This document shows positions 8,643-54,310 of a stretch of 64,000 nucleotides of DNA, piece by piece (the first letter of the stretch is position 1; the number at the start of each line of letters is the position of its first letter). A model generated the notes under the pieces. The model ran no database searches, was not told where the DNA came from, and saw nothing but the letters and a program-made list of their open reading frames with translations. Origin of the DNA: a bacterium (GTDB lineage: Bacteria; Armatimonadota; JACIXR01). Both the position numbers and the translations under genes were made by a program. The DNA lies in the NCBI GenBank assembly GCA_014360465.1, contig JACIXQ010000002.1, positions 3,719-67,718 on the forward strand, written 5' to 3'.

Positions 8643-8671
8643 TTGCCCAAATGACTATATTGAGATAGAAT
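8643..8671 (+). promoter_or_regulatory. Putative sigma70-type promoter for the nurA operon (-35 TTGCCC, 17-nt spacer, -10 TAGAAT), followed by RBS AAGGAGG at 8679-8685 and a GTG start at 8693
   Basis: Hexamers read directly from the sequence. The spacing is canonical, and the RBS lies 7 nt upstream of GTG. Confidence 0.3.
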
Positions 8672-8692
8672 AATATACAAGGAGGAGTTGCT

Positions 8693-9817
8693 GTGCCCTG
8701 CTACCCTAAGCAATTTGCCGAGAGCATAAAGAAAAAACAGGAGAAATTCCTCGCCCTTTTCAGCCCCGAGCCCAAAAACCAAGAAGAATCCTGGCTAAAA
8801 GAGGAAGTCCTTCGCAACTGGCATAAGTTTCCCTCTCTTTCCTCATCAAGCCAATCGGTTTTCGCAGTTGATGGCTCAAACGCTTGCCTCGCCCTTCAGG
8901 GTGGTAGATACATCTCTATTGTGCAGGCTGTCCTTCAAGGGAAGGAATGGCGAGAAATAGAAGTTGATGCAGAAGTATTCAGAGATACAGCCAATGTGGA
9001 TGTGGAGAGATTCCATCAGATTCATCGCCAGTGGCTTGAATGGAAGATAGCAAGGGAAAACGCCAAGAAGATGACCAATGGTATCCTCTTCCTGGACGGT
9101 AGCCTTTACATTTCTCCTGTCTTCTATAGTTGGACTATGATTCCCCAGCGAATGCCAGAAGGTTTAGAGGAAATGCCCCTGCTGGCAATGAACGAGTTCC
9201 TCTCCCTCGTCAATCTTTCAATCCGCCATAACCTGCAACTCGTGGGCATTTCTAAAACGAGTAAAAGCCATTTTTACCCACGGAGATTTCTAAACAAAGA
9301 TGTAGCAATAACCGATAGCGAGATTTTCACCTTCTGGACGAGTGATCCAGGCTATTCCACTCCTCTCCTTGTCGGACCCTATTTCATTCCTCAACCATGG
9401 GAAAGGGTGAAAGGAGAATTTCTCAAGGCGTATCAATCTGAGCTGAGTGAGAAAGTTGGTTCTATGCTTGATGAATTACTCCCTTCCCTTTCTGTGATAA
9501 TTTTCTTCGTAAGATTCGAAGAAGGAGATGAGGTTTACAGGGTGGATGTCCTCTCGTCATCGCTCAATTATAAAGTTAAGCCAGAAGAGCTTAAAGATAT
9601 GATATCATTAGAGCCCCAAATCGTTCATCCGCTTCTCTCCGTCCTACTTTCCTCACACGGAGGCTTTAATGTCTATCACAACCTTCTTTATGTGGCACAT
9701 AATGAGGTTATGCTGAGGGAAAAGGACCAGGATGTTTATATGAGTCTTTTGAGGGAATTGGTTCAACTGCCGATAAGGAGGAGCAAGGTGGACACGAGAT
9801 TTGGAAGGAGGTTTTAA
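8693..9817 (+). CDS. nurA: NurA-family 5'-3' nuclease
   Basis: 374 aa with a GTG start. The catalytic-aspartate motif VFAVDGSNACL and a second motif ILFLDGSLY are characteristic of NurA. It lies immediately upstream of herA with a 2-nt spacer. Confidence 0.7.
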   Translation: MPCYPKQFAESIKKKQEKFLALFSPEPKNQEESWLKEEVLRNWHKFPSLSSSSQSVFAVDGSNACLALQGGRYISIVQAVLQGKEWREIEVDAEVFRDTANVDVERFHQIHRQWLEWKIARENAKKMTNGILFLDGSLYISPVFYSWTMIPQRMPEGLEEMPLLAMNEFLSLVNLSIRHNLQLVGISKTSKSHFYPRRFLNKDVAITDSEIFTFWTSDPGYSTPLLVGPYFIPQPWERVKGEFLKAYQSELSEKVGSMLDELLPSLSVIIFFVRFEEGDEVYRVDVLSSSLNYKVKPEELKDMISLEPQIVHPLLSVLLSSHGGFNVYHNLLYVAHNEVMLREKDQDVYMSLLRELVQLPIRRSKVDTRFGRRF

Positions 9818-9819
9818 AT

Positions 9820-11535
9820 ATGGAAGTTGTCAAAAGTTATCAACCTGTAGGGTATATAGTGGGAAATGTAGAAACGCAAAGATTTCGCTTCGTAACGGAA
9901 CCGAGCATATGTCCCCCCAGGTTAGAATATCTCGTGGTTAGGGATGTTCCTGCGACGGAACAGGGAATGGACAAGGTGGATGTCTTAGCCCAGGTGAGCG
10001 AATTGAGAGTAGCAACCCAAGTTCTTGGCGAGGAATTGACATTTGAAGAAGCGAAAGCAATATTGGAGGGACTTTCTCCCCGTCCAAAGATAATCGGCAC
10101 AGCCGATGTTTTGGGCTATCTAACAAAGGATAAATCCGTTAGATTGCCACGCCACACTCCCCTGCCCGGTCAACCAGTTTTCCTTGCATCTGACGAGTTC
10201 CTCAAAAAATTCTTCTCAGAAAATATAGAATATGGAATCACCATCGGTACCCTTATAAATAGGGAGGGGGTTGAGGTCAAGCTGAATCCAAACGGTTTGA
10301 GGAGGCACCTGGCGATTATTGCCCAGACTGGGGCAGGCAAATCCTATCTTGCCGGTCTTCTACTTGAACAATTGTTGAAGCTCGGCGCAACAATTCTCGT
10401 CTTTGACCCTAACTCAGATTATGTGATGATGCGCCTCACAAAAGATATGCGAAAAACCAGCTTCGCTGACTGGGTTAGAGTATATCGCGTGCCCCTTAAG
10501 GGCGAAAGGCGCTATAGCGATGAGAAAATCGGAGGAAGCAGAAAATATACAATAAGATTCTGGACATTGGATGAGGAAGATATCTTCGAAATAGCTCAAA
10601 TTCACGAGAGCTGGACCAGAATCAGGGAATCCCTAAGCAAATTGCTCTCATTCGTGAAAAAGAGGAGCACCTATTTTACCCCTAAAGAATTGAAAGAAAC
10701 TTTGGACGAGTTCTTAAAAGGCGAATCAGCAGGAGAGCTGGACGAGCTGGAAGAAGGCATAGGAGAAGAATTCCTTGAAGCTATAACGCAAGATATGCAA
10801 ATGAAAAGCAAGGATAGAAAAAATACCAAGATGCCCCTCTCTTTCGAAGACATAAGGAGGATTAAACCTTATGTGGAAAGGATTGCTTCCTTGGAAATAT
10901 GGGGCGAAGAGGACCTTCCCATTGAGGAAATAATTGCTCCTCAAACCCTTTCCGTGGTGGACTTAGCAGGTCTCCAACAGAGAGCAATGGAGGTGGTTGT
11001 AGATAGAACTCTAAGAGGAATTTGGGAGAAGGCAGTTACGGGACAATTACCTCGTCCCCTGTTCATCTTCCTTGAGGAAGCCCACAACTTCGTCCCAGGG
11101 AGAGGGAAACCCAGCAGGTGCGCCGATATTATAAACCGCATAGCTGCTGAAGGACGCAAATTCAAGGTTTTTCTCGTCGTCATCACCCAGCGTCCCTATA
11201 AAATAAATCAGGATACCCTCTCCCAATGCGGTAGCCAAATAATAATGAAATTGACCAATCCCGAAGACCAGAAAGCAGTAAGGACTGCCTCTGAAAACAT
11301 TTCCGAATCCTTACTTGCCGATTTGCCCGGTCTGAATACTGGTGAGGCGGTCATCCTCGGTGGGCTTACCAGGGTTCCCGTTATGATAAGAGTGGGAGAA
11401 AGGGAATCCGCAGAAGGTGGCGCGGATGTAGATTTAATAAAGGAGCTACAACTGGCGAGTCAGGAAAAGATACAAGCTCGTATCGGTCTCGCTGAAAAGG
11501 ATGAACAATTCAAAGAAATGAATTTTGGGGTTTAG
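9820..11535 (+). CDS. herA: HerA-family (FtsK/HerA superfamily) DNA helicase/translocase ATPase
   Basis: 571 aa. N-terminal HAS-barrel-like region, Walker A AQTGAGKSY, Walker B LFIFLEEAHNF, a VVITQRP block and the helical insertion typical of HerA/DUF87. Confidence 0.85.
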   Translation: MEVVKSYQPVGYIVGNVETQRFRFVTEPSICPPRLEYLVVRDVPATEQGMDKVDVLAQVSELRVATQVLGEELTFEEAKAILEGLSPRPKIIGTADVLGYLTKDKSVRLPRHTPLPGQPVFLASDEFLKKFFSENIEYGITIGTLINREGVEVKLNPNGLRRHLAIIAQTGAGKSYLAGLLLEQLLKLGATILVFDPNSDYVMMRLTKDMRKTSFADWVRVYRVPLKGERRYSDEKIGGSRKYTIRFWTLDEEDIFEIAQIHESWTRIRESLSKLLSFVKKRSTYFTPKELKETLDEFLKGESAGELDELEEGIGEEFLEAITQDMQMKSKDRKNTKMPLSFEDIRRIKPYVERIASLEIWGEEDLPIEEIIAPQTLSVVDLAGLQQRAMEVVVDRTLRGIWEKAVTGQLPRPLFIFLEEAHNFVPGRGKPSRCADIINRIAAEGRKFKVFLVVITQRPYKINQDTLSQCGSQIIMKLTNPEDQKAVRTASENISESLLADLPGLNTGEAVILGGLTRVPVMIRVGERESAEGGADVDLIKELQLASQEKIQARIGLAEKDEQFKEMNFGV

Positions 11536-11537
11536 CC

Positions 11538-12737
11538 ATGGTCAAGCTGGTTATCTGCTCCGATACACATCTTAATGCGTATTACGCAAGAATGAGACCA
11601 GAACAACTTGAAAAAAGGCGTGAACGCCTTAGGCAAGCTTTCCAGAAAGTGGTTGACTTTGCTATTGAAGAGAAAGTGGATGTCTTCCTCCACGCAGGGG
11701 ACCTCTTTGATATGCCAGACCCTCGCTATAAAGAGGTCATCCTGACCTTCAGAGAGCTGAAGAGATTGAAAGAAGCAGGAATAAGAACATACCTAATAGG
11801 TGGCACACACGATATACCGAAAGCTATCTACGAAGCAGGCGGGGCACCAGTCCTCCACCTATATGAGGAAGCAGGTTTAGCGAAATTCTTCCGCTTTTTC
11901 CACACATCAGAGGCTGAAGTAATAGATGTAAACGGAAAAAGGTTGGTCATCGCCGGGGTCTCCTGTGACCCACGTATTAGAGATGGAAATCCCTTAGAAT
12001 CATTGAACCATACTCCAGCTGAGGGGGATTTCAGGATTTTTATGTTCCATTACGCAATAGAGGGAAAGATGCCAAGAATGTATGAGGGAGCTTTTGTCCC
12101 TCTCAGCTGTCTGCGTGATTTGCCCGCTGATATAATCGTTGCAGGGCATATACATCCTCACAGCCATTTTGAACTTGGAAACAAGCTGGTTATAATCCCC
12201 GGTGCAACGGAAAGGTTGGATTTCGGTGAGGAGGAAAATGAAACCGGTTTTTATTATGTGGAGCTTGAGAATAAACCCAAAATAAAGTATTTGAAAATCG
12301 AACCCCAGCGAATGCGTACAGTGGAGCTTCATATTTCCGAACTCGCTAACCAGCCCGAGGAGAAAAAAGCGGAGTACATCATATCTAAGCTGAAATCCTT
12401 CTCCCATCCAGACCAGCTCCTCAGATTTAGGCTTAAGGGTCAGATAAAACCAGCTCATTCTTCCCCAGGAACTAAACCCCCTTTCACCCAATTCATCCCC
12501 CTAAACAGGATTGTTGAAGAAGGGAATAACAATAATTTCTACTTCCACCTTGACCTTAGCGAGCTGAAAATCGAAAGTAGCCTGATAGAGACATACGGTG
12601 GAGAAGGCAATATCTCTATTTTTGAGGAAGTGGAGAAGGTAGTAAATTCTATGCTGGAGAGAGAAGATGAAACTATGAAAAAGCTTATCCAGGAAGCGAG
12701 GCATATCGTTCTCTCCAGGTTGGAGGAGGTGAGATAA
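11538..12737 (+). CDS. mre11: Mre11/SbcD-family calcineurin-like phosphoesterase nuclease
   Basis: 399 aa. Phosphoesterase motif I ICSDTHL, motif II HAGDLFD, motif III GGTHD (Thr in place of the usual Asn of GNHD), and motif V AGHIHPH. Confidence 0.8.
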   Translation: MVKLVICSDTHLNAYYARMRPEQLEKRRERLRQAFQKVVDFAIEEKVDVFLHAGDLFDMPDPRYKEVILTFRELKRLKEAGIRTYLIGGTHDIPKAIYEAGGAPVLHLYEEAGLAKFFRFFHTSEAEVIDVNGKRLVIAGVSCDPRIRDGNPLESLNHTPAEGDFRIFMFHYAIEGKMPRMYEGAFVPLSCLRDLPADIIVAGHIHPHSHFELGNKLVIIPGATERLDFGEEENETGFYYVELENKPKIKYLKIEPQRMRTVELHISELANQPEEKKAEYIISKLKSFSHPDQLLRFRLKGQIKPAHSSPGTKPPFTQFIPLNRIVEEGNNNNFYFHLDLSELKIESSLIETYGGEGNISIFEEVEKVVNSMLEREDETMKKLIQEARHIVLSRLEEVR

Positions 12738-12739
12738 AA

Positions 12740-15523
12740 ATGATATTGAGAAGATTGCAAGCAGAGGGTTTCAAGCATCTGCGGGGAATAGACCTTGTAT
12801 TCCCTCCAAAGGGGACCTTCCTCATCCAGGGAAATAATGAAGCGGGCAAGAGCAGTTTATTTGAGGTCGTTTATTTCTGCCTCTTCGGTAAAGGACTACA
12901 GGCACGGGCAAGTGAAGACCTTATCGGTTACGGTCTCAACGAGGCAAAGGTTTATGTGGAATTGGAATTGCCCAAGGGTGATTTGAAAATAGAACGGGTG
13001 ATAAGAAGGAATAAGACGAACACCGTAAAAGTTGTTGTGGGAGAGGAAGTGATAACCACAAGCAGGGAAGCTAACAGGCGCATCCAACAAGAAATTAACC
13101 TTGACCCCGATACCCTGCTGAATTCTTGCTTCGTTGAACAGAAAGCTTTGGAGAAACTTGAGGGACTCGATAAATCCTCAAGGGAAAGCGCCGTAATGAA
13201 ACTTCTTAATCTTGACAGGATACAAGCAATAGAGGAAGAACTAAAAGTTAAAAAAGAGGATGAGAGATTACTTGAGGAATGGAAGAAGAAAATGAGGGTA
13301 GCGGAAATAAGGGAAAGGAAACCTCACCTCCAGGTTGAGGTAGAGAAATACGAGACATTGAAGAGATTCTGGGAAGTTAAGGAGAAGCTCGCTGAGGCAG
13401 AGAAAAACAGAAGAATAGCAGATGAAGAAGAGAAGAAAATCCCCATTTTTGAGAAAGCTCGCAATGAATTGCAGGCAAAGGTTCAGGACCTCCACAAAAT
13501 CAGAGATAGAGAGCATAAGATTGACAATATCCTCCACTATATCCGCCTGATAAGCGAAAAAGAAGCTCATCTTTACAATATCAACAAGCAAATTGAAGCA
13601 ATAGAAAAGGAGAAAGCAAATCTCCCAATTCTTCAAAATAAATTGCACAAAGCTTATACCCTGCTTCGCTTACTCAGCAGGTTGGAAACCCTAAAAAACA
13701 GAATAAACGATTTTGCTAAATGGTTAGATATAGATAAGAAAATAGGAGAAGAGGAAAGCCGTGTGGAGATTCTTAACGCAGAATTAGAAGCAAAAAACGG
13801 AGAACTTGAAAATAGAAAAAAGAATATTGAACTTCTCTCAAAGTGGCGCGAGGTTAAGGAAAAAGAGGAGAAGCTTATAGAGAAGGAAAAACTTTCCGAG
13901 GAAGAGGGAAGAAACAAAAACCAGGCGATAATTGGTTTTGCCCTATCTTTCATCCTTGCTATTGTTCTCCTTCTCTCCCCCTTCAAGTGGTTTGCCCTGA
14001 TCACCATCTTACCCCTACTCTTTTCTGCTCGCTCCTATAAGAAAATGATGGATGCAAGACTCGGAAAAGCCCAAATAGAAGGCGCTTTGAAGGGAATAGA
14101 TATCTCGCACCTCAAAAATTTGAGGCACGAGCTTGAGAGGGAAAATTTGGGCGGGTTGGAGGAAATCGGCACTATAAATGAGAAGCTTGCAGAAGAAGAG
14201 AATATAGTGAGATTGCTTGAGAATGAAATAGAAAAGCTCAAAAGAACCATAAACCAAATTCAGGGGCGAAAAGAGGAATTGAGCAGACAGCTTGAACAAG
14301 TATTTCCTACTCATATATATTCTTTATCGCCCGAGGAAATCCCTCTTAAGAAGGAGAAGATGGAGGAACTTGTAAAGAAATGGGAAGAAAAGTTAGCATT
14401 ACTGGCAGAAGAATTTGGGTTACCTCTCGATATGGGAGACTTGCGTCAGCTAACGGGAAGGCTGGAAAACGATATAGGTAATATGAAGCAGAATATCGCC
14501 AAATTGCCAGAACTTCTCAAAGATAAGCAGAAGACCGAAGAAGAAATAACGAACATAAAGAGAGAAATAGATAAAATCGCCGAGAACTTCAGGGAGGAAA
14601 TTAAAGATGTTTATTCACGCGAGGACTGGGAGAGATTGAGAACAAATTTAAAGAGGATAAGGGACCAGCTGGAAAGAGAAGAGGTAGAGAAAAAACTCCA
14701 GGAAGCAATTGGTAGGTTGAGAGCACAGGAGCAGAAAGTCGCCACCTATAGGGAAAGAGCAGAAGAATTGGAGAAAATGGCGAAGGAAATCTCATCCACT
14801 CTCGGTGAGCCACCAGAAAATCTCCCTTCCCTTGAGGAGATTAATAAGAACCTTGACCAGAGGCGAGCTGAGCTAATTCAATGTGAAAAAGAAGAGCAGG
14901 AACTAATAAAGCAAATTTTGGGAGACATACCATCTCTTGAGAAATGCAGGGAGGAATACGAGAAGTTGGATAGGGAATTGCAGATAAGGACTCTTAGCGT
15001 CAACATCCTTGAACAAGCAAGGCAAAATATGACAAGGAAAATCCTCCCTCGTACCGAAAGCTATATGTGGAGCATATTACCATTAATAACTAACGATAGA
15101 TATCGCCAGGTTGAGCTTGACCCCGATACCTACCGAATAAAGGTATACGATGAGCGAGCGGGCGATTGGAAAGAAAAGCATATATTCAGCGGAGGCACGA
15201 GGGACCAAATGTCGCTTGCCTTGAGGCTTGCTTTCGCCCTCGCCACACTCCCCAAGGAAAGAGGCATAGCTCCCCGTTTCCTTTTCCTTGATGAACCCCT
15301 TTCCTCATTTGATGAGCAACGCAAAGAGGCATTGATAAAGGTAATCACAGAGGGAGAAATCGCCGATTCCTTTGACCAGATATTCATCATCAGCCACACT
15401 CCCCTTCTCAATCCCAACTTGTTCCATTTCTATATCTTTATGGAAAATGGAAGGATTAAAGAGTGTAGTGAAGAGTTACTACCTGCAGAAAAGAGAAACT
15501 TGACCAACACTACCCTAACTTAG
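12740..15523 (+). CDS. rad50: Rad50/SbcC-family SMC-like ATPase. Lacks a CxxC zinc hook and has a central hydrophobic hairpin.
   Basis: 927 aa. Walker A GNNEAGKSSLFE, long E/K-rich coiled coils, ABC signature FSGGTRDQMSLALRLAFAL, Walker B/D-loop LFLDEPLSSFD and H-loop IISHTP. There are only 5 Cys residues and none form CxxC. Near the midpoint is AIIGFALSFILAIVLLLSPFKWFALITILPLLFSA. Confidence 0.85.
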   Translation: MILRRLQAEGFKHLRGIDLVFPPKGTFLIQGNNEAGKSSLFEVVYFCLFGKGLQARASEDLIGYGLNEAKVYVELELPKGDLKIERVIRRNKTNTVKVVVGEEVITTSREANRRIQQEINLDPDTLLNSCFVEQKALEKLEGLDKSSRESAVMKLLNLDRIQAIEEELKVKKEDERLLEEWKKKMRVAEIRERKPHLQVEVEKYETLKRFWEVKEKLAEAEKNRRIADEEEKKIPIFEKARNELQAKVQDLHKIRDREHKIDNILHYIRLISEKEAHLYNINKQIEAIEKEKANLPILQNKLHKAYTLLRLLSRLETLKNRINDFAKWLDIDKKIGEEESRVEILNAELEAKNGELENRKKNIELLSKWREVKEKEEKLIEKEKLSEEEGRNKNQAIIGFALSFILAIVLLLSPFKWFALITILPLLFSARSYKKMMDARLGKAQIEGALKGIDISHLKNLRHELERENLGGLEEIGTINEKLAEEENIVRLLENEIEKLKRTINQIQGRKEELSRQLEQVFPTHIYSLSPEEIPLKKEKMEELVKKWEEKLALLAEEFGLPLDMGDLRQLTGRLENDIGNMKQNIAKLPELLKDKQKTEEEITNIKREIDKIAENFREEIKDVYSREDWERLRTNLKRIRDQLEREEVEKKLQEAIGRLRAQEQKVATYRERAEELEKMAKEISSTLGEPPENLPSLEEINKNLDQRRAELIQCEKEEQELIKQILGDIPSLEKCREEYEKLDRELQIRTLSVNILEQARQNMTRKILPRTESYMWSILPLITNDRYRQVELDPDTYRIKVYDERAGDWKEKHIFSGGTRDQMSLALRLAFALATLPKERGIAPRFLFLDEPLSSFDEQRKEALIKVITEGEIADSFDQIFIISHTPLLNPNLFHFYIFMENGRIKECSEELLPAEKRNLTNTTLT

Positions 15524-17147
15524 CAAGTTCTTTGACCAATTCATCCGTGAGGAATGGTAGGGAAAAGAGTATGAATCCCTTTGCTCCCTCCCTCTTTAAT
15601 ATTTCAAGCTGCCTCATCACTTCGTTTTTGCCTTTTGATACTTCCCTTCCTCTGACCACTTTGTAAATGCTCAAGCCCGCTATAATTCTCTTTAGCTCAG
15701 GGTCATATCTTTTCCATTCCTTGATAGCCGATAACAGCCTTCCATCGTCTACATAAGCCATTGGAGCAAGGAAATCAACTATCTCTTCTTCTATCCAGTT
15801 GTACCAATCTTGAAGGACTCTATCAGCGCTTATCTTGTTATAGAACACTGCTGCGCTCAATTGGAGCGAATCGGAATGCCCTTTTAACATTCTGAATACT
15901 TCTTCTACAAATGAAGTTATAAGAGCCTTACGATATGAGAGCCACTCTTCAATTAGTTTCCGCCTTTCATTGTTGTCACTGAACATTGGTATGAGCGGAT
16001 GCGTTTCAACAGGTAAGATATAATGTTTTCCCCTCATTACATCACTCAGCCCGCTCACTCCCAGAATATCTTCAATGGAGGAACCCTTTATCCCTCGCCT
16101 TCCAAGGGTGACTATTACTCTGCCACCTTTGTTAACAAATTCCTCTAAGTCCTTACTCACATCCTCACCAATCGTTTCCAAGCCCGGAATCAACACCACT
16201 AAATTATTTGGGTCAAGTTGCTTCAGCTCACCCAACATTCCCCATTTATATCCCCCTTCTTTAAGAAGCTTCAGCATTAACTGAAAATTCTCTTTATCAT
16301 AACTAAGCCCATTCCGCTGGAGAGGAATCAATATAGTACCTTCACCTTCCAGCGCCCGCCAAAGAGTGCGAGAAAAGAGGGGAAAGGAATTTTCATCCAC
16401 TGTCCAATTGAAGAAGAGAAGCCAACCTTTTGAGGAATTTTCCTTAATAGTAATGGCTGGAGTACCATTATCAAAACGAGCCAAAACCTTCGCAGTGACC
16501 ACTTTCACAAGTGGTTTAGAGTGGATTGAAAGGCTGATAGGTATTCCATAAAGCAAATCCAAAGGGTCAACTCCGTAGATTTTCCTAAAGCCACTACGGC
16601 ACTCCTCACAATAGCAGTAATCGTTGGAAGGAAAACGGATATAATCCAATTGCACTCCATCAACAGGATAATCCTTTAACAGGTCTGCAATAAGTTTCAG
16701 TTGAAAATCCCTTACTTCTTTCTTCCCTAAATCAAACCACCTCCTTTTCTCTCCTTTAGCGTTCTCTATTTGCCAATCCGGATGAAGTGAAAGTATTCCG
16801 TCACTTCCTTTACCTCCTTCCTGTCCATTTGAGAACCTAGCGAAAACCTTTATCCCTCTCTTATGGCATTCCTGAACGAAGTAGTAGAAGAGGTCATCAT
16901 CCTTTAGATTTTCCTGTGCAAGTGGTGCATAATCAGTTCTGAAAAAGCTTTTACCACCCCAGTAGTAAACAAGGACGAAAACCGCGTTCAGTTTGGCAGA
17001 AGCGATTCTTTGTGCTATTTTTTCTGCGGATTCTCTATCCCTTATTTGGGTAGCTTGCATCCAAATGCCCCTAAGCTCAAACTGACCTGCCAGGCAGGGG
17101 ATGAGAAAAAAGATGAGAAAAAGTTTTATAAAGAAACGATTTACCAT
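15510..17147 (-). CDS. Secreted glycoside-hydrolase-like family 10 (GHL10/DUF187, YngK-like) protein (putative)
   Basis: Signal peptide. N-terminal RGIWMQ, a VYYWGG TIM-barrel start typical of DUF187, and CYCEECRSGF. Its 3' end overlaps the rad50 3' end by 14 nt (convergent). Confidence 0.5.
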   Translation of the reverse strand: MVNRFFIKLFLIFFLIPCLAGQFELRGIWMQATQIRDRESAEKIAQRIASAKLNAVFVLVYYWGGKSFFRTDYAPLAQENLKDDDLFYYFVQECHKRGIKVFARFSNGQEGGKGSDGILSLHPDWQIENAKGEKRRWFDLGKKEVRDFQLKLIADLLKDYPVDGVQLDYIRFPSNDYCYCEECRSGFRKIYGVDPLDLLYGIPISLSIHSKPLVKVVTAKVLARFDNGTPAITIKENSSKGWLLFFNWTVDENSFPLFSRTLWRALEGEGTILIPLQRNGLSYDKENFQLMLKLLKEGGYKWGMLGELKQLDPNNLVVLIPGLETIGEDVSKDLEEFVNKGGRVIVTLGRRGIKGSSIEDILGVSGLSDVMRGKHYILPVETHPLIPMFSDNNERRKLIEEWLSYRKALITSFVEEVFRMLKGHSDSLQLSAAVFYNKISADRVLQDWYNWIEEEIVDFLAPMAYVDDGRLLSAIKEWKRYDPELKRIIAGLSIYKVVRGREVSKGKNEVMRQLEILKREGAKGFILFSLPFLTDELVKELAKLG

Positions 17148-17206: not shown

Positions 17207-18265
17207 ATGTCCTATGAGATAGGAAACAAAATTCTCAACCTTGAATTCACGGAAAGAGTTGGACGAACTGAATATTGCGCTCATACAGCCCTTGTTCGCC
17301 ACATTACCGGCTATGACCCCCTAAGCCCTGACCCTGAGGAGAGCTATAAAGCCTGGAAGCTCTTCTACGAGTGGGCTGAATATGACTTCCTCTGGTTTTC
17401 CCACGACGGACCGGTAGATTGGGGAGCCGTGGGCAGGGTCACCGATATGGGACATGCTGTTTATATGGAAGGGGGCATCGATTTCAGGGATAAAGTTTAT
17501 TGTCCCTTCCGAACGCCCGAAGAGGTCCTCTCCTTTGATGCAGTAAAAGAGTACGGCTCATTTGATATAGACGAGAGGGCGGCATTCTTCCAAAAGGTTT
17601 ACGAAGATGGGCAAAAAGCTTATCCAAATCTTGTTTTTCCTGGGGGCTATTACAAGACGCTTATCTCGGGATGTATACAAGCATTCGGTTGGGAAATGTT
17701 CCTCCTCGCTGTTGGCACGGATCCTGATAGATTTGGAGATTATGTTCTTCAAGGATTCTTTGAATTGAGCCTGGCAAATATCAAAGCGTGGGCGAAGACG
17801 AGTATAAAGGCATTTATCTGCCACGATGATATGGTATGGACAGAAGGTGCATTTATCCACCCCAATTGGTACAGAAAATATGTCTTTCCCAGATACAAGA
17901 AACTTTGGGAACCTTTGAAGGAGAAAGGGATAAAGGTGCTTTTCTGTTCAGATGGCAATTTCACGGAATTCATAGATGATTTTGTAGAAGCTGGAGCGGA
18001 AGGGTTCATTTTTGAACCACTCACAAGTTTGGAATATATCGTGGAGAGATACGGGAAGACTCATATTATAGTTGGAAATGCTGATTGTCGTGTGTTGACA
18101 TTTGGTGGTAAGGAGGACATAGAGAAGGAAGTGAAAAGGTGCATAGATACGGCTAAACATTGCCCGGGCTTCATAATGGCTGTTGGCAATCACATCCCTC
18201 CCAATATCCCGCTGGATAACGCACTTTATTACTTTGAGTTCGTCAGGAAATACGGCAAACGCTGA
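17207..18265 (+). CDS. Uroporphyrinogen-decarboxylase-like (URO-D/MtaA/CmuA family) protein, paralog 1
   Basis: 352 aa. URO-D-like TIM-barrel pattern: the HxxG-like motif FCSDGNFTEFIDDFVEAGAEGF and C-terminal YYFEFVRKYGK. Shares conserved blocks with the ORFs at 52795-53970 and 62419-63642. RBS AAAGGAGG upstream. Confidence 0.65.
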   Translation: MSYEIGNKILNLEFTERVGRTEYCAHTALVRHITGYDPLSPDPEESYKAWKLFYEWAEYDFLWFSHDGPVDWGAVGRVTDMGHAVYMEGGIDFRDKVYCPFRTPEEVLSFDAVKEYGSFDIDERAAFFQKVYEDGQKAYPNLVFPGGYYKTLISGCIQAFGWEMFLLAVGTDPDRFGDYVLQGFFELSLANIKAWAKTSIKAFICHDDMVWTEGAFIHPNWYRKYVFPRYKKLWEPLKEKGIKVLFCSDGNFTEFIDDFVEAGAEGFIFEPLTSLEYIVERYGKTHIIVGNADCRVLTFGGKEDIEKEVKRCIDTAKHCPGFIMAVGNHIPPNIPLDNALYYFEFVRKYGKR

Positions 18266-23505: not shown

Positions 23506-24411
23506 ATGACCAGTAGGGAAACGAAAGCATACAGGGCTACCCTGGTTGCTATATTTTCCGAACTTATCCTTCTTTCTTCAAAGGGGATTGTCGGTTTCCT
23601 CATTTCCTCCCTTAGCGTATTAGCCGATGCCTTAGATTCGCTACTTGACCTCATAGCCTCCACCCTCATCTATTTCTTCCTTCGCCAAGCTGCCCGTCCC
23701 CCTGATGAGGACCATCCTTTTGGGCACGGCAAATACGATGCCGTTGCATCTCTTTCCCAAGCGACGCTAATGTTGGGACTCGCGGGAATTATCTTCTACG
23801 AAGCAATTAATAAGGTGCTCCACAATATCCCAGTAAAAATGCCCGAGCTTGGCGTTGGAATAATGTTGATTAATATCCTATTCAGGATTTCCCTCGTTAA
23901 ATATTTTTCCAAAATAAGGCGTGAAACTGGTTCCCTCTCAATCTTTTCCCTCATCGGACATTATAAAGGAGATTTATACAATTCTGTTGGTATTATACTA
24001 GGATTGCTTGTGGTGAGAATTACCGATATCCATTTGTTTGACCCCCTGATAGCCTTTGTCATCTCCTTTTTCTTCCTCAAAACAGCCGTGATTATTTATA
24101 GGGAAGCCTTTCATCAGATTCTGGATAGGGTACCCGAGGATGTTTACGAGAAAGTAAGCGATATTCTCAGAGAGCATTATCCCGAACTCACAGGTTTTCA
24201 TAAATTGAGAATCCGCAAAGCAGGTAATGGCTTGCAGATGGATATGCATATCCTCCTTCCGAATGGTCTCTCCCTTCAAGAAGCCCACGATTTATCAGAA
24301 CATTTAGAAAACGATATCAAAGAGGTTTTTCCTTCCTCGGTAATTGTAATCCATATGGAACCCGAGGTAGAGGATGTCAAGGGAAATTTGGAAAGCAAGA
24401 AAAAAAGATGA
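23506..24411 (+). CDS. Cation diffusion facilitator (CDF) family metal efflux transporter
   Basis: 301 aa. Six hydrophobic helices with the CDF signature (DSLLD...HxxxD-like motifs in TM2/TM5) and a C-terminal cytoplasmic domain. Confidence 0.8.
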   Translation: MTSRETKAYRATLVAIFSELILLSSKGIVGFLISSLSVLADALDSLLDLIASTLIYFFLRQAARPPDEDHPFGHGKYDAVASLSQATLMLGLAGIIFYEAINKVLHNIPVKMPELGVGIMLINILFRISLVKYFSKIRRETGSLSIFSLIGHYKGDLYNSVGIILGLLVVRITDIHLFDPLIAFVISFFFLKTAVIIYREAFHQILDRVPEDVYEKVSDILREHYPELTGFHKLRIRKAGNGLQMDMHILLPNGLSLQEAHDLSEHLENDIKEVFPSSVIVIHMEPEVEDVKGNLESKKKR

Positions 24412-26113
24412 AGAAAAAGCGAGGGAATTGGCACGAGAGCTTCCAATTTTACCCTTAACCGCCTCCCTCATTCTTAATAGAGGCATAGAAGACATCTCTG
24501 AAGCAAAAAAATTCCTTTTTCCCAAGCTTTCATATCTAAATGACCCTTTTCAACTGGAGGAAATGGAGCTGGCTGTAGCAAGGTTGAGAGAAGCGATAAT
24601 AGAAAAAGAACCGATATTCCTTCAGGGAGATTACGATGTGGATGGTATATGCGCCACAGCCCTGTTGGCGAAGATTCTCGTTTCTTTGGGAGGAAGAGTC
24701 TTCTGCTATATTCCAAACAGGCAGAGAGAAGGACACGGCATATCTGATTACGCAGTAAAAAAGGCAATTGAATTAAGAGCAGGTTTATTTGTGACCGTTG
24801 ACTGCGGCAGTTCCTCCCACGCCCAAGTAGAGAAGCTTAATGGGAATGGGATAGATGTGATAATCACGGACCACCACGAAATGCCGGAGAGACCTTCAGC
24901 TTTAGCCCTGGTGAATCCCAAATTCTCCGATTCCTACCCATTCCAAGCACTTGCTGGCGTAGGCGTTGCCTTCAAAGTTGGGCAAGCCCTGATTTCTTCT
25001 TTTGGGAAAAGCTTGGGACCACTTTACGAAAAGCTCGACTTGGTAGCGCTTGGCACAATTGCGGATTTGGCATCACTCCTTGGAGAAAACAGAATACTCG
25101 TTAAGTTTGGACTGGAAAAATTGGGAACTATACCCTCAAACGGGCTTGATATGCTTAAGAAATTTACCGGGTTGAACGGCTATGTGGATTCCCACAAAGT
25201 CAGCTTTATTCTTGCCCCGCGCCTTAACGCACCCGGGAGAATAAGTAGCCCTTTGAAAGCGCTGGAGCTACTATTAACAGAGGATAACAATAAGAAAGAA
25301 GCGCTTTGCCGGGAATTGGAAAAAATGAATAGGGAACGGCGCTCGCTGGAAACGAAAATTCTTATGGAGATAGAAGAAGACCTATCAAGCCTTGACCTGG
25401 AAAGAGAACTTGTCATCGTACTTAAAGGGGAAAATTGGCACAGGGGTCTTTTAGGACTTGTAGCATCAAAGTTAGTAGAATTGTATCAAAGACCCGTGTT
25501 CGTCCTTTCAAAGTATGGAGATAAAGTCAAGGGTTCGGGAAGAAGCATCCCCTCTTTTAATATATATAAAGCAGTCCAGGAAATATCCCATCTTCTGATT
25601 AATTATGGCGGACATAACTCTGCTGTAGGGGTGGAAATGGAAGAAGGAAATTTTTATCCCTTTAAAGAGCACATCAACGAGATAGCGAGCAAATATCTCT
25701 CCTTGGATGAGCTTCGTCCAAAACAGGAAGCTGAAGCTATCCTCACGTTCCAAGAAATAAGTTTCAGGCTTGCCCAGGAAATCTCCCTTCTCGCTCCCTT
25801 TGGGATAGACAATCCCCAACCCCTCTTCATCAGCAAGGATGTAGAGGTCAAAGGAGTCAATTCTTTCCCAAACGGTAGGTATGCCGTTCTCACCTTACAA
25901 CAAAATGGAACAGAGCTCATCTGTCTAAGCCCCGTGAAACTCCTTGAGGGGCTTCCCCACAGATGTTCGATCATCTATAGCTTGGATGTGGATAAAGACT
26001 CAAGTCAACCTCTCCTCTTGCTAAAAGGGTGGAGCGAGGAGGATAATATAATTGTCTCCGAGGAAAAAAGACCATATCTGGGACAACTTCTACTATGGGA
26101 GGATTTGTTTTAG
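24374..26113 (+). CDS. recJ: Single-stranded-DNA-specific exonuclease RecJ (DHH family)
   Basis: 579 aa. DHH motifs GDYDVDG and ITDHHE, and a DHHA1 region with GGH. Overlaps the CDF gene's 3' end by 38 nt. Confidence 0.85.
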   Translation: MSREIWKARKKDEEKARELARELPILPLTASLILNRGIEDISEAKKFLFPKLSYLNDPFQLEEMELAVARLREAIIEKEPIFLQGDYDVDGICATALLAKILVSLGGRVFCYIPNRQREGHGISDYAVKKAIELRAGLFVTVDCGSSSHAQVEKLNGNGIDVIITDHHEMPERPSALALVNPKFSDSYPFQALAGVGVAFKVGQALISSFGKSLGPLYEKLDLVALGTIADLASLLGENRILVKFGLEKLGTIPSNGLDMLKKFTGLNGYVDSHKVSFILAPRLNAPGRISSPLKALELLLTEDNNKKEALCRELEKMNRERRSLETKILMEIEEDLSSLDLERELVIVLKGENWHRGLLGLVASKLVELYQRPVFVLSKYGDKVKGSGRSIPSFNIYKAVQEISHLLINYGGHNSAVGVEMEEGNFYPFKEHINEIASKYLSLDELRPKQEAEAILTFQEISFRLAQEISLLAPFGIDNPQPLFISKDVEVKGVNSFPNGRYAVLTLQQNGTELICLSPVKLLEGLPHRCSIIYSLDVDKDSSQPLLLLKGWSEEDNIIVSEEKRPYLGQLLLWEDLF

Positions 26114-31586: not shown

Positions 31587-33459
31587 AATTTTTCCGCCCA
31601 AATTCCTTTTCTGAAAGTTCTATCAAAGCCACGCTATTGGGAAGAAGGTTAAGATTTATCTCCCACCTACTTTTTAAGGGGATTTTTCCCTCCCTCGTGC
31701 ATTCCAATTTTCTCACACTGGGATTGTGGAAAACATTGTTATGCTCAGGGTCAATAAGAAATAGCCTGCTTATTCCGCCTCTCAGTGTAGCTGGCAATTG
31801 CTCAATTACAATTTTTACTAAGCGAGGAATTCCATAGCGTTCGGCGAAATTTACAACCAAGATTGTCAAACGGGAAGAGCCAGGAGAAATAGAAGCGAGA
31901 GCGCATATCTCGTCATCTCCGCCAAGTGTCTCTACCCTATCTTTTTCCATCATAGAGAAAAGCTTAAAAACAAAATAGGAAGGCTTGGGTATATTATCTC
32001 CTATCAACATACCCCAGCTTCCTCTGAATCTTTTATCCCCATCCTTGGCGTAGAAGAAGCATACACCTGTTATTCCCGCAGGTATACTCGCTCTAATGAT
32101 ATTGTTAGCAACCCAGGCGGAACCAACTTCGTTATCCTGGGCGAAATCTGGCCACCAAGCATAGTTGAATTCGGTTAGGAAAAAACCCTTTATTCTTCTC
32201 TCAATTCTGGGATATTTCGCGAGTATAGCTTTGGTTTTCTCCATTTCTTCAATATAAACTTCCGGCGGATGGAAATATTCGTGCCAGGTTATGAAGTCAA
32301 GTGGCAATCCTTTCTCGTTGCAGAATTTGAGCAAGCCCTCCATATAAGTTTCTCCATTGATGCAATAGGGTCTCTCCTCTGAATAATCCCAAGGTCCTGA
32401 AGCATTGCAAGGTCCTCCAACAAGGGCATTTGGGTCTGCTTTTTTTATCCCTTTAACAGAAGCTTCATATAGTTTAAGATAAGCTTCCAATGGAGTGATA
32501 CCGGGCGGTGGTTTTAACCATCCCGCATTTGCCTCATTCCAAACCTCCCAATAGCGCACCCTTTTACCCCTCTCTATACAATGTTTAGCCGCTTTATAGC
32601 ATAAATCTTCCCATAAAGTGTAATCTTTGGGAGCACTATGGCGGTCGGGGTCAGGAATAGCATCAAAAGGAATTGGCATATAGGAGAGACAGATGATTGG
32701 CTCTGCCCCCGTCTGGAATATGAAGTCAATCCTCCTATCGAAATCTGTCCAATCATAAACCAATTTTCCATTTTCCTCCCTTACAACCGAGGTGAGAACA
32801 TTGTCCATCCTGAACCATAGAGGTTTTAGGTCCTTTAATGCCAAAGCAGTGTCGGGTTCATAATCAGCCATCCCACCTCCCTGCGAGATGCCGGCAAGCG
32901 GGCGTGGCAGTATTCCCTGAATATTCCTTGGATTAATTCTAATAAGACAAGGCTTGTTCGCTTTCTCAAAGGGTATTATCTTCAGCTCTGCTTGCTCGAA
33001 TACCACTTCTCTTTCTCCCATTACTGGTCCAAAAACCCTTATCGCCAAAGTGTGAACCTCCCCGGGGACTGCATGCTTACTCAGCAGTGCCGCTCCAGGA
33101 TGGTCATTGTCATATCTTGCTTGAAGCTTTCCATCAACATATATCTCACCACCCTCGCTTGTAGAGACAAACATAGCAACAGGTAAACCTTTGACGCTCT
33201 GTTCATCTATTTTCTCAGGAATTCTCACCCAAGCTTTCAACCAACCGAACTCGCCTTCTTTCATCTTGAATTTAGCACCCACCTTTACGATATCCCAATC
33301 CAAACAGGGATAATTTGGCTGGGAGAATTCCTTTCTATCTTCCGAGGTCCAATACCAAATGTCCTCGGCTAAAATCGGATTTATCAAATAAAAAACAGCT
33401 AACAAAAACCAAATTAAGGGATTTCCTCTCATCAACCCCAGAAGTGATATATGCGCCAA
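31555..33459 (-). CDS. Secreted clan GH-A glycoside hydrolase, GH39-like (putative)
   Basis: Signal peptide. Acid/base motif YWEVWNEANAGW and nucleophile-like FLTEFNYAWWP on a TIM barrel, followed by C-terminal beta-sandwich domains. The 3' end overlaps trmI by 32 nt (convergent). Confidence 0.55.
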   Translation of the reverse strand: MAHISLLGLMRGNPLIWFLLAVFYLINPILAEDIWYWTSEDRKEFSQPNYPCLDWDIVKVGAKFKMKEGEFGWLKAWVRIPEKIDEQSVKGLPVAMFVSTSEGGEIYVDGKLQARYDNDHPGAALLSKHAVPGEVHTLAIRVFGPVMGEREVVFEQAELKIIPFEKANKPCLIRINPRNIQGILPRPLAGISQGGGMADYEPDTALALKDLKPLWFRMDNVLTSVVREENGKLVYDWTDFDRRIDFIFQTGAEPIICLSYMPIPFDAIPDPDRHSAPKDYTLWEDLCYKAAKHCIERGKRVRYWEVWNEANAGWLKPPPGITPLEAYLKLYEASVKGIKKADPNALVGGPCNASGPWDYSEERPYCINGETYMEGLLKFCNEKGLPLDFITWHEYFHPPEVYIEEMEKTKAILAKYPRIERRIKGFFLTEFNYAWWPDFAQDNEVGSAWVANNIIRASIPAGITGVCFFYAKDGDKRFRGSWGMLIGDNIPKPSYFVFKLFSMMEKDRVETLGGDDEICALASISPGSSRLTILVVNFAERYGIPRLVKIVIEQLPATLRGGISRLFLIDPEHNNVFHNPSVRKLECTREGKIPLKSRWEINLNLLPNSVALIELSEKEFGRKNFRNQRDALRR

Positions 33460-35345
33460 TTAAAGAGAATTCCCATTATATTGGCAAGGCTTCCCACTGT
33501 GAACTCACCGAGAATCAATCCGAAAAAGAAGGGTAAAGCAACCCTATAACCTTTCAATCCAGTGGTCCTCATTATGATAAACTTGATCAACCAAGCAATG
33601 AAGATTGGGAACCACATCCAGCTCATACTCCAGGAAGAGGAAACGGCGTATCCAACAGGATGGAATGGCCACCAGAAAAATGATGTCTTCATAAATATAA
33701 GGAAAAGACATACAGCAAAGCCAACGCCGGTGAAGACCGAACACAGTGGATCCCGTTTGGCTGGAGTTTCTATCCAGGAGGAAAGTCTGTTATAAGGTTC
33801 CCAGCCAAACCAAGTAGCGGGTCCAACTACTTTCGCTGAAGCGGCACCTATTCTATAGTAAAGGTCCAGAAGAGCCCAAAATGCAACGAATGAACCGATG
33901 AAGGAAGCAAGTAACATAATCCACATATATTGCTTGTAACTTGTGTTTGTTCTTTCCGCTATTTTGAATCCTTCCATTTGATGGGGCATTGGATGAGAAC
34001 GATAAGCCCTGTTGAAACCCCAATATAAAGAAAGAACAGTGAGATTCCTCGGAGATATGTTCTCTACTCCCCAGATGCGGGTTATCATCTGGTCGGGACC
34101 GGCAAAGTGGAGGTCGTGCGCTGGTGAACCAAGCTCCGCCCTCATCCTTGCCACAGCGATGGAGAGAATGAAAAAGATAGCCAGGGCAATTAGTGAGACA
34201 CTCCAACTCATACCAGCTCTTACGAAGAGATAAGCAGCTAATGGATATCCTATGAGAAGTCCTAAAATTGCCGTCCTATATGACATAGGCTCATCCGAAT
34301 CGTCCAATTCCGATTTCATACCCAAGGCTCTCTTGAAGACCTCCTTCAAATAGTGACGAGCTACCCATATCACAAAGAAAGTAACCCCTATATACGCGCC
34401 CGCTGATTGGTCATTGATATATGGCATATCCGGTCTACCGACATGGAGATTGAAGGCAACGCTCACAACCCTTTGAAACTTCCAATACCAATAGAAGAAC
34501 CAACAGGAAAAGGAGAGGTCAAGAGGGAGAAGGAAACCAAGCCCAATTATGCAGGGGAATAAGGCAAGGGGAGTCCAACCTATAGCCCACCAGGGATGGG
34601 TCGTCATATATTGCCCCAGGTCATAATCCCTTATTGGAATGTGTGGAATAGCGGGGAAATTGGCGTTTATGTTGTTAATTATATCAACAAGCGCTGCTAA
34701 TCCGAAACCAATCCACATAAGCCTTTGTTTGAACAGAGTGAACTTTTCATCGGTCATTGCCAAGGGGAGTATAATAATTGGGAAGGTAAGTCGCTCCCTT
34801 TCCGTCCACTGCTTTCTGAAGATTACATTAATACACATCATCATAAATATCAGGACCATAAAGAAACCCGTCCAAATTAAAATAACAGGTAGCCAAGCAC
34901 GGATATGCTCCTTAGTGTAAAAACTTGACCATCCAAGGAAATACCCTTCAAGTATATTCTTGTCGGAAACCATCAACCATTTGGGTAGATATTTGAAGAA
35001 GAGTTTCTCCCATTTGTTCTCGGGTGTAGCATACCAGAATGGATGGGTAAGACAAGCGATAAGAACCTGATACATATCATGCCCCACCATACAGGAACTC
35101 AAAGCCAAAATAGAATATATAACCAAGAGTTCCCCTTGACTGAACATATAGCGAGGCGCCACCTTGCTCAAAAAGAAATTAATCAAAACAAGGAAAAGAA
35201 GGGTAAAAACGACATTGAAGAATAGCGACATCGTTGTGGGATGCCCAGTGTATGTAATAACTTCCATATAAGCTACCCACCAGGAATTAAGCGGCATAAG
35301 AAATATCGCTATTAGAACTGCCCTAAGGGTTATCGCTTTCCTCAT
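33432..35345 (-). CDS. Polytopic integral membrane protein (637 aa, at least 12 predicted TM helices), unknown function
   Basis: Many 18-24-residue hydrophobic segments rich in W/F/Y. No recognisable transporter signature by eye. Confidence 0.45.
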   Translation of the reverse strand: MRKAITLRAVLIAIFLMPLNSWWVAYMEVITYTGHPTTMSLFFNVVFTLLFLVLINFFLSKVAPRYMFSQGELLVIYSILALSSCMVGHDMYQVLIACLTHPFWYATPENKWEKLFFKYLPKWLMVSDKNILEGYFLGWSSFYTKEHIRAWLPVILIWTGFFMVLIFMMMCINVIFRKQWTERERLTFPIIILPLAMTDEKFTLFKQRLMWIGFGLAALVDIINNINANFPAIPHIPIRDYDLGQYMTTHPWWAIGWTPLALFPCIIGLGFLLPLDLSFSCWFFYWYWKFQRVVSVAFNLHVGRPDMPYINDQSAGAYIGVTFFVIWVARHYLKEVFKRALGMKSELDDSDEPMSYRTAILGLLIGYPLAAYLFVRAGMSWSVSLIALAIFFILSIAVARMRAELGSPAHDLHFAGPDQMITRIWGVENISPRNLTVLSLYWGFNRAYRSHPMPHQMEGFKIAERTNTSYKQYMWIMLLASFIGSFVAFWALLDLYYRIGAASAKVVGPATWFGWEPYNRLSSWIETPAKRDPLCSVFTGVGFAVCLFLIFMKTSFFWWPFHPVGYAVSSSWSMSWMWFPIFIAWLIKFIIMRTTGLKGYRVALPFFFGLILGEFTVGSLANIMGILFNWRIYHFWG

Positions 35346-53970: not shown

Positions 53971-54310
53971 GAAGAATTAATCAAGCGATTTAATAAAAGT
54001 TATATTTCTCAAAATCTATTCAACATCTTGACTTATAAACCATCTTTAATATTCCATCGCCCCTTCTGCTTTGAAATGTGATACTCCACAAAAAGTGCAA
54101 AAATCTTGGTTGTCTACTTGTGGTTTCTATTATTACAACCTCCTCACCTCCTTCTAAATCTTCAATTGTAAGATAATCAAATATTGAAAAGCATTCTTGC
54201 TTTGGACATTCTTCCTTCCACATAATCATAATACAATGTAAATCTTTGAAAAATAAAAAAGCTTGCCTTGGACTCCAAAGTATTACTTGAGAGGAGTAGT
54301 TCATTTAACG

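Follow-up and report, generated by a model that had tools for sequence, protein, structure and literature searches.

How does a bacterium come to possess, and what does it do with, a four-gene operon for a NurA nuclease, a HerA translocase, an Mre11 nuclease and a Rad50-like ATPase? The question is raised by positions 8693-15523 of the window analysed here, i.e. the whole 64,000-nucleotide (64-kb) stretch of contig JACIXQ010000002.1 (GenBank assembly GCA_014360465.1) from a bacterium of the JACIXR01 lineage. The initial annotation of this DNA recognized the four genes and saw in them an archaeal hallmark in an odd host, and it missed the most unusual feature of the operon, which is a Rad50 that lacks the zinc hook and bears a hydrophobic hairpin. 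The four-gene operon alone is ordinary, being widespread and native in several bacterial phyla, whereas the replacement of the hook by a putative membrane hairpin throughout the family is the new part. We favour the reading that the operon is native to the bacterium and has been inherited vertically, and that it probably encodes a chromosomal DNA-end-resection machine that is tethered to the cytoplasmic membrane and has a housekeeping role in repair or end processing. The genes and the hairpin are located as follows:

8693-9817, + strand: nurA, NurA-family nuclease with an RNase H-like fold, 374 amino acids (aa), GTG start
9820-11535, + strand: herA, HerA/FtsK-superfamily DNA translocase (hexameric by family), 571 aa
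11538-12737, + strand: mre11, Mre11/SbcD-type phosphoesterase nuclease, 399 aa
12740-15523, + strand: rad50-like, hookless SMC/Rad50-type ABC ATPase, 927 aa
13925-14029, + strand: hydrophobic helical hairpin of the Rad50-like protein (aa 396-430, AIIGFALSFILAIVLLLSPFKWFALITILPLLFSA) at the coiled-coil apex instead of the zinc hook, putative membrane anchor

The hookless Rad50 and its apex

The ABC head of the Rad50-like protein is complete, with Walker A (GNNEAGKSS), Q-loop (FVEQ), signature (SGGTRDQ), Walker B (FLFLDEP), D-loop (SSFD) and H-loop (ISHT) all present. The protein matches Pfam SMC_N at 7.5e-13, and its head is nearest to M. jannaschii Rad50 in the PDB (7e-19) and matches the NCBIfam model Rad50_Sulf at 2.6e-28. 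What is missing is the zinc hook: there are five cysteines in total and no CxxC, and because the hook is a defining feature, we file the protein as hookless and not as a canonical Rad50/SbcC. In an AlphaFold2 monomer model (22-sequence family alignment, mean predicted local distance difference test score 81.9), the head carries a long antiparallel coiled coil made of the helices 172-412 and 416-783. At the apex of the model, a helix (376-412) passes through a three-residue turn (413-415, S-P-F) into a second helix (416-450), and this predicted helix-turn-helix suggests that the 35-residue block at aa 396-430, over which the Kyte-Doolittle mean reaches up to 2.6, forms an apical helical hairpin where canonical Rad50 has its zinc hook. 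A Foldseek comparison of the model with the PDB gave generic SMC and Rad50 matches and was uninformative on the apex. With canonical Rad50/SbcC proteins (P. furiosus, T. maritima, E. coli SbcCD), the protein shares the complete ABC head, the long antiparallel coiled coil and the Mre11/SbcD partner, but in addition to being hookless it has its apex at a relative position of ~0.42 instead of ~0.5, and its C-terminal arm is thus ~130 residues longer (aa 431-783 versus aa 172-395). The model gives seven breaks in this long arm, which may fold into an extra helical subdomain.

Is the hairpin a peculiarity of one protein? Rad50 relatives from 60% down to ~25% identity have no CxxC, and nearly all of them have a hydrophobic block of ~40-50 residues in mid-arm, whereas five canonical Rad50s from the same search, which served as control, have a central CPxC and no hydrophobic block. 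Every complete Rad50 open reading frame (ORF) that is linked to the HerA clade of the window, be it bacterial or bathyarchaeal, has the block and lacks CxxC. In a family profile search against 1.84 billion representatives, 2007 proteins reached E <= 1e-30, and a central CxxC occurs in none of the 137 full-length representatives that were analysed among the top matches. A central hydrophobic block of at least 30 aa is present in 112 of these 137 proteins (median 45 aa), a shorter one in 12 and none in 13, and the relative position of the block is constant (0.42 +/- 0.02). The hairpin blocks comprise 35-45 residues with Kyte-Doolittle values of 2.2-3.1 and a median of one charge inside; their sequence drifts freely among relatives while the hydrophobicity is kept, and the S-P turn is conserved within the window lineage. 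The ten residues on either side of the block have mean net charges of +1.91 and +1.75, compared with -0.41 in other windows of the coiled coil (p ~1e-41 and ~1e-35, values that overstate independence because the representatives, at <=50% identity, are related). Such basic flanks are a positive-inside signature, which fits a hairpin that enters the membrane from the cytoplasm and has both its ends there.

Some relatives of the wider family are built differently. A subgroup of ~1200-aa proteins (P0025, also P0027 and P0028) has neither hook nor hairpin, and the one locus of this kind that was examined (L083 6697-11684, P0025) encodes just Mre11 and Rad50, and neither HerA nor NurA lies next to them. 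In the Asgard Candidatus Harpocratesius (L081 5444-17484, JBPLBG010000034.1), a 1568-aa SMC-like protein has a similar mid-arm hydrophobic hairpin and no central CxxC. Its gene is preceded by a weakly matching Metallophos (Mre11-like) gene and followed by genes for a BrxL homologue (6e-89), an AAA_5 ATPase and an unknown 634-aa protein; an HD-domain protein is encoded upstream, and HerA and NurA are absent from the locus. This context looks like a defence island.

Which published protein comes closest? The match of the Rad50-like protein to Pfam AAA_27 (1e-5; 25.7 bits versus a cut-off of 22), a family built around YhaN-type proteins, is only a hint of kinship to Bacillus subtilis SbcE (YhaN). 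SbcE is the nearest published precedent, compared here by its description only: it is an SbcC/Rad50-like ATPase without CxxC, with a hydrophobic and insoluble “unique central domain” that contains a conserved proline, its gene adjoins that of the SbcD/Mre11-like nuclease SbcF (YhaO), and it takes part in double-strand break (DSB) repair and in transformation and is found close to the DNA-uptake machinery at the cell pole (PMC2811018). The window Rad50 shares with this description the lack of CxxC, the hydrophobic centre with a conserved proline and the adjacent gene for an SbcD-like nuclease, but the window system also encodes NurA and HerA, and no such partners are described for SbcEF. Membrane insertion of the central domain was not proposed in the 2009 SbcE paper (PMC2811018). 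In full-text searches of the literature we found no hairpin- or membrane-bearing Rad50 that is linked to NurA-HerA, although the ABC-ATPase classification of Krishnan et al. 2020 may mention this clade.

Partner proteins, distribution and inheritance

Profile searches place the four products in the NurA, HerA, Metallophos/Mre11 and SMC/Rad50 families, and the ORFs, the matches in Pfam, NCBIfam and the PDB, and the catalytic motifs bear out the gene identities and the motifs named in the initial annotation. NurA matches PF09376 at 1e-20 (74.7 bits versus a cut-off of 21) and contains the motifs AVDGS (aa 58-62) and LDGS (aa 134-137). All of 45 linked homologues share its residues D60, E116 and D135, while position 336 is H in the window protein and D in 41 of these 45. 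The sole PDB match of NurA is P. furiosus NurA, at E 0.075. HerA has the central domain PF01935 (6e-36, 125 bits), the Walker A motif AQTGAGKS (aa 168-175), the Walker B motif FIFLEEAH (aa 415-422) and the motif VVITQRP (aa 453-459); its PDB matches (9x1l at 2.6e-45, Sulfolobus HerA 4d2i at 1.8e-42) cover mainly the ATPase and C-terminal regions. Mre11 matches Pfam Metallophos at 9e-15 and Mre11 of M. jannaschii and T. maritima in the PDB at ~2e-13. All five phosphoesterase motifs are found (DTH, GDLFD, GGTHD, FHY, GHIH), and none of the residues D9, H11, D55, H91, H171 and H206 varies among 45 linked homologues. Motif III reads GTHD rather than GNHD, a variant that the initial annotation did not report and that is found in 9 of the 45 homologues, with GNH in 35. 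In a metagenome-assembled genome (MAG) of Chloroflexia (L042 11731-13237) and in one of Bathyarchaeia (L076 3170-4326), mre11 is broken into two successive ORFs, which could reflect a frameshift, a pseudogene or an error in sequencing. A membrane-grade segment was found in none of the NurA, HerA and Mre11 proteins of the window.

How close are these proteins to those of the archaeal repair system? An operon of the order herA-mre11-rad50-nurA reportedly serves DSB repair in Sulfolobus, Pyrococcus and Thermococcus, and is said to have been treated by Constantinesco in 2004, by Hopkins and Paull in 2008 and by Blackwood in 2012. The window system has in common with it that the same four families are clustered in one transcription unit, that its HerA, Mre11 and Rad50 heads score best against the proteins of that operon, and, presumably, that end recognition by Mre11-Rad50 is followed by HerA-NurA resection. 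It differs in being nurA-first, in its hosts, which are bacteria and Bathyarchaeia, and in having a hydrophobic apex hairpin in place of the CxxC zinc hook. The NCBIfam equivalog cut-offs served as a test of equivalence to the characterised archaeal repair proteins. The best NCBIfam matches are indeed archaeal DSB-repair models (HerA at 1.6e-59, Mre11_Sulfo at 4.6e-28, and Rad50_Sulf as given above), but all are far below these cut-offs: HerA reaches 201.9 bits (cut-off 970) and 190 bits (cut-off 800), and NurA reaches 35 bits against NurA_Sulf (cut-off 400), so that neither qualifies as equivalent to its archaeal counterpart. The operon proteins are therefore relatives, not orthologues, of the characterised archaeal proteins. 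HerA scores 158 and 149 bits against archaeal repair HerAs and <=94 bits against defence HerAs, and its match to the NCBIfam model HerA_antiphage is 106 bits versus a cut-off of 800. It also weakly matches the CedD translocase model (3.5e-21), which is far weaker than its match to the repair HerA model.

The genes are separated by 2 nucleotides (nt) at all three junctions (TAA-at-ATG, TAG-cc-ATG, TAA-aa-ATG), and purine-rich, Shine-Dalgarno-like sequences lie within the 3' ends of the upstream genes, in line with the tight translational coupling that was initially described. Two further signals precede nurA:

8680-8685, + strand: Shine-Dalgarno AGGAGG, 7 nt ahead of the GTG start of nurA, read from sequence
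8643-8671, + strand: possible sigma-70-like promoter TTGCCC-17-TAGAAT in the 138-nt intergenic region 5' of nurA, 9 of 12 positions matching

The promoter and terminator scan gave site counts at chance level (shuffled expectation), with this single plausibly placed promoter-like site upstream of nurA, which is weak evidence because the number of sites is not above the shuffled expectation. At the other end, rad50 overlaps a convergent GHL10-like glycoside hydrolase gene (15510-17147, - strand) by 14 nt (15510-15523), and the scan found no terminator-like site between the two.

The distribution of the module was determined by scanning species-representative genomes with the HerA alignment, which gave matches in 192 genomes; 80 loci were retained. 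The HerA clade includes the window lineage, Caldisericota, Armatimonadota, Dictyoglomota, many Anaerolineae and other Chloroflexota, Ktedonobacteria (including the cultured Ktedonobacter sp. SOSP1-85), one Acidobacteriota MAG and many Bathyarchaeia, which carry the same operon with a HerA that is 45-47% identical to that of the window. The four genes are found within 10 kb in 33 of the 80 loci, and they are tight and in the order nurA-herA-mre11-rad50 in 28; many of the remaining loci are truncated contigs. The adjacency of herA to the gene of its obligate partner NurA is kept in the tight operons, and mre11-rad50 adjacency is conserved among the linked loci. The nurA-first order, initially regarded as unusual, is thus the norm for this HerA clade, in several bacterial phyla as well as in Bathyarchaeia. 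The operon itself, long established in several bacterial phyla, recurs in Chloroflexota, Dictyoglomota and Bathyarchaeia, and a nurA-hepA-sbcD-sbcC cluster, with the SbcD and SbcC homologues directly downstream of hepA, had already been recorded in Oceanithermus profundus (PMC5448004). The assertion that the operon is exceptional in bacteria therefore largely falls, as it is common and already described there, while the four-gene identity still stands. The NurA-HerA (HepA) pair of Deinococcus-Thermus is likewise a bacterial end-resection complex, and O. profundus shares the four-gene logic (PMC9960219, PMC5448004), but HepA represents a different HerA lineage: T. thermophilus HepA has <=27% identity to any archaeal HerA (PMC5448004), whereas comparison of the window HerA with archaeal HerA structures gives E-values of 1e-42 to 1e-45. 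Moreover, Thermus HepA is soluble and cytoplasmic, whereas the window system is predicted to be membrane-tethered.

In Anaerolineae the cluster is fragmented, and as family hidden Markov models recovered no extra NurA or Rad50, this fragmentation is real and no sensitivity artefact. The gap between herA and mre11 holds defence-type or mobile genes: a pair of an AAA_21/AAA_15 ATPase and a DUF4276 protein matches the candidate defence pair HEC-01A/B of PADLOC (1e-69, 2e-13), and other insertions are N6/N4 DNA methylases (78-89% identity between species) and DUF2442 genes. Such insertions lie at L007 11892-13612, L012 10071-11770, L025 13509-13889, in L009, L027 and L029 (e.g. L009 13536-14429) and in L034, and the cluster is apparently a hotspot of insertion in Anaerolineae. 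A conserved fifth component was considered and rejected: the inserted genes are heterogeneous in Anaerolineae and Caldisericota (HEC-01, methylase, DUF2442, Cache-domain, histone-deacetylase-family), and they are absent from the tight operons.

Where does the operon of the window come from? The window RelA has relatives at 77-79% identity and then only at <=50% (Fervidibacter, Armatimonadota), and this gap indicates that the host is a deep bacterial lineage. The flanks comprise, as initially noted, bacterial housekeeping genes and carbohydrate-active enzymes (CAZymes), namely HisD, a fused SecDF, RecJ, RelA/SpoT and glycoside hydrolases. The GC content at third codon positions (GC3) is 0.467-0.488 in the operon and 0.445 +/- 0.032 in the flanking genes, with nurA farthest at ~1.3 standard deviations. 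The three genes that follow the operon keep their synteny in the sister species L001 and L003, with products that are 52-87% identical; the operon proteins have diverged to a similar extent, with 53-80% identity. No defence or mobility genes exist anywhere in the 64-kb window, i.e. no integrase, transposase, restriction-modification, CRISPR or toxin-antitoxin genes, and true homologues of the module were found on none of 72,556 plasmids and 50,697 phages. In a neighbour-joining HerA tree without outgroups, Bathyarchaeia form one clade and bacteria fall into phylum-coherent clades. One HerA that is labelled Krumholzibacteriaceae (L053) lies inside the Bathyarchaeia clade, where it is almost identical to that of L066; its contig is probably mis-binned.

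GC3, synteny and the lack of mobility genes favour an operon that is native and vertically inherited. A recent horizontal acquisition from archaea, as envisaged by the initial annotation, could account for the best scores of all four proteins against archaeal models and for the operon that is shared with Bathyarchaeia, but these scores are the ones that remain far below the equivalog cut-offs. Composition and synteny are contrary to any recent transfer, which we therefore reject, and the phylum-coherent HerA tree, in which several phylum-level bacterial clades are separate from the single Bathyarchaeia clade, makes a recent archaeal import unlikely; all in all, we give this origin hardly any credence. 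The exchange between bacteria and Bathyarchaeia, in whichever direction it went, would be ancient.

Proposed mechanism and rival explanations

How could such a membrane-tethered system work? By homology, an Mre11 dimer and the Rad50-like ATPase would recognise DNA ends and nick or trim them, whereupon the HerA hexamer would drive the duplex into a NurA dimer for processive 5'-3' resection or degradation. End trimming by Mre11-Rad50 and resection by HerA-NurA are modelled on archaeal and Deinococcus systems (PMC3326311, PMC9960219). The Rad50 apex hairpin with its ~35-45 hydrophobic residues would insert into the cytoplasmic membrane with both ends remaining cytoplasmic, and two hairpins may pair within the bilayer, thereby substituting for zinc-mediated dimerisation. 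With the hairpin inserted, the ATPase-nuclease heads would be suspended ~30-40 nm beneath the membrane, where they would meet DNA ends. The analysis shows which genes these are, that their catalytic motifs are intact, that the operon is conserved, that the hook is absent, and that the hairpin exists with its position, hydrophobicity and charge signature; complex formation, membrane insertion and biological role are what we infer for this system. A housekeeping role in recombinational repair or end processing is favoured by the stable, native locus, by the phylum-coherent HerA tree, by a HerA that is nearer to repair than to defence HerAs, and by the absence of the module from the plasmids and phages searched.

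Several points weigh against this proposal. Membrane insertion is a prediction from hydrophobicity, from the charge bias, measured on related sequences, and from a monomer model by AlphaFold2. The second hairpin helix of the window protein is short, with ~14-15 hydrophobic residues, and the hairpin may just as well be re-entrant or monotopic as cross the membrane fully with both helices. As the 13 representatives without a block (~10%) also have no hook, the wider family does not strictly need an apex hairpin. The role in repair, in turn, would be an extrapolation from thermophilic archaea and Deinococcus, and the defence-type insertions of Anaerolineae together with the Asgard relative beside BrxL leave a role in defence open.

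What alternatives exist for the tethered repair machine? The same machine could be a defence system that destroys linear foreign DNA (phage, conjugative or transforming) at its point of entry. It would be well placed for this, as foreign DNA ends first appear at the membrane, and the HEC-01A/B pair, the methylases and the DUF2442 genes in the Anaerolineae gap as well as the BrxL, AAA_5 and HD-domain neighbours of the distant hairpin-bearing Asgard relative are compatible with it. Destruction of extrachromosomal DNA by HerA-NurA has in fact been speculated upon by Blackwood et al. (PMC3326311). The window system resembles HerA-based and SMC-like defence systems (Sir2-HerA, DUF4297-HerA, Lamassu LmuB, Wadjet) in combining a HerA hexamer or SMC-like end sensor with a nuclease and in generic profile matches, among them one of the Rad50-like protein to PADLOC LmuB at 3e-29. 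This match is, however, no better than that to the Rad50 model over the same region, the effectors Sir2, DUF4297, LmuA/LmuC and JetABCD are absent, and scores are lower than those to repair proteins. In a PADLOC scan, all matches were of the generic HerA or SMC-like type and NurA and Mre11 had none, so that a known defence system was rejected. Unlike defence islands, the window locus is chromosomal, syntenic and non-mobile, even though defence-type genes are inserted within the Anaerolineae clusters; its composition is native, its HerA phylogeny is not patchy, HerA is closer to repair than to defence HerAs, and neither the window nor the plasmids and phages searched speak for such a role. The defence module that the initial annotation had considered thus receives weak, indirect support from outside the window and none from within it, and overall we regard defence as unlikely.

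A role of the tethered machine in processing DNA that is taken up or exported, by transformation or intercellular exchange, and in feeding it to homologous recombination is in our view slightly more doubtful still. Foci of SbcE and SbcF appear at the competence pole and depend on ComK, and deletion of sbcE lowers transformation (PMC2811018), genes for HerA-like proteins and Rad50 co-localise with the Ted DNA-import system in Thermoproteales, and HerA-NurA has been proposed to generate single-stranded DNA for transfer (PMC9905601). The window HerA matches CedD, but much more weakly than repair HerA, and the window and the examined tight operons contain no competence, pilus or type IV secretion genes. 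Finally, the complex might be soluble, with the hairpin lying outside the membrane and taking the place of the zinc hook as a hydrophobic knob for dimerisation, which we consider improbable. The role of the hook is apex-to-apex dimerisation, for which some replacement is needed, the second helix of the window hairpin is rather short to cross the membrane fully, and SbcE foci were reported to move within cells (PMC2811018). Yet the length, hydrophobicity and near absence of charge of the blocks are membrane-grade, basic flanks on both sides would not be predicted for a soluble bundle, the sequence of the block drifts while its hydrophobicity persists, and the central domain of SbcE was completely insoluble (PMC2811018).

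Neighbouring genes and significance

A recJ gene with DHH, DHHA1 and RecJ_OB domains (24374-26113, + strand), flanked by a cation-efflux gene and relA/spoT, follows the operon at a distance of ~9 kb, and the host thus has, judged from its domains, a second 5'-3' resection nuclease near the operon. In Deinococcus, RecJ is reported to bind HerA physically (PMC4663267). Other parts of the window concern different functions. Three URO-D-fold paralogues are encoded at 17207-18265 (+ strand), 52795-53970 (- strand) and 62419-63642 (- strand); the first, which is the sole one scanned against NCBIfam, has weak best matches to MtaA/CmuA-type methylcobamide methyltransferases, and the third adjoins a B12-binding radical SAM gene (60959-62416, - strand). 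This set is unusual for a CAZyme-rich heterotroph and may relate to the demethylation of methylated sugars. A DUF6785/DUF6784 protein (5.9e-170; 33432-35345, - strand) is encoded next to a GH39 gene and belongs to a strongly conserved family, here in a polysaccharide-utilisation context. Four large ORFs have no Pfam match at 1e-5 (42777-44750, 657 aa; 49858-52791, 977 aa; 54263-55879, 538 aa; 57220-58800, 526 aa), and the lowest GC content of the window, 0.37-0.40, is found at 54-57 kb.

To our knowledge, the zinc hook has been held to be defining and functionally essential for Rad50/SbcC across all domains of life. We tentatively put forward, at slightly less than even chances, that there is a large Mre11-Rad50 family in Chloroflexota, Dictyoglomota, Armatimonadota-like lineages, Caldisericota, Bathyarchaeia and perhaps with Firmicutes SbcEF, usually accompanied by NurA-HerA, in which the zinc hook is replaced by a transmembrane hairpin, and that this family constitutes an unrecognised membrane-tethered class of end-processing systems at the cell envelope. 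Several questions are thereby opened to test: what purpose the coiled coils and the apex of Rad50 serve, whether the central domain of SbcE is a membrane anchor, and whether the NurA-HerA systems of mesophilic bacteria function in repair, DNA uptake or defence. The cultured carriers Ktedonobacter and Dictyoglomus make experiments feasible. If the proposal is true, zinc-mediated dimerisation at the apex would not be obligatory and an end-resection machine would sit at the cell envelope, where its roles may be to anchor broken chromosome ends or to intercept and process DNA that crosses the membrane.

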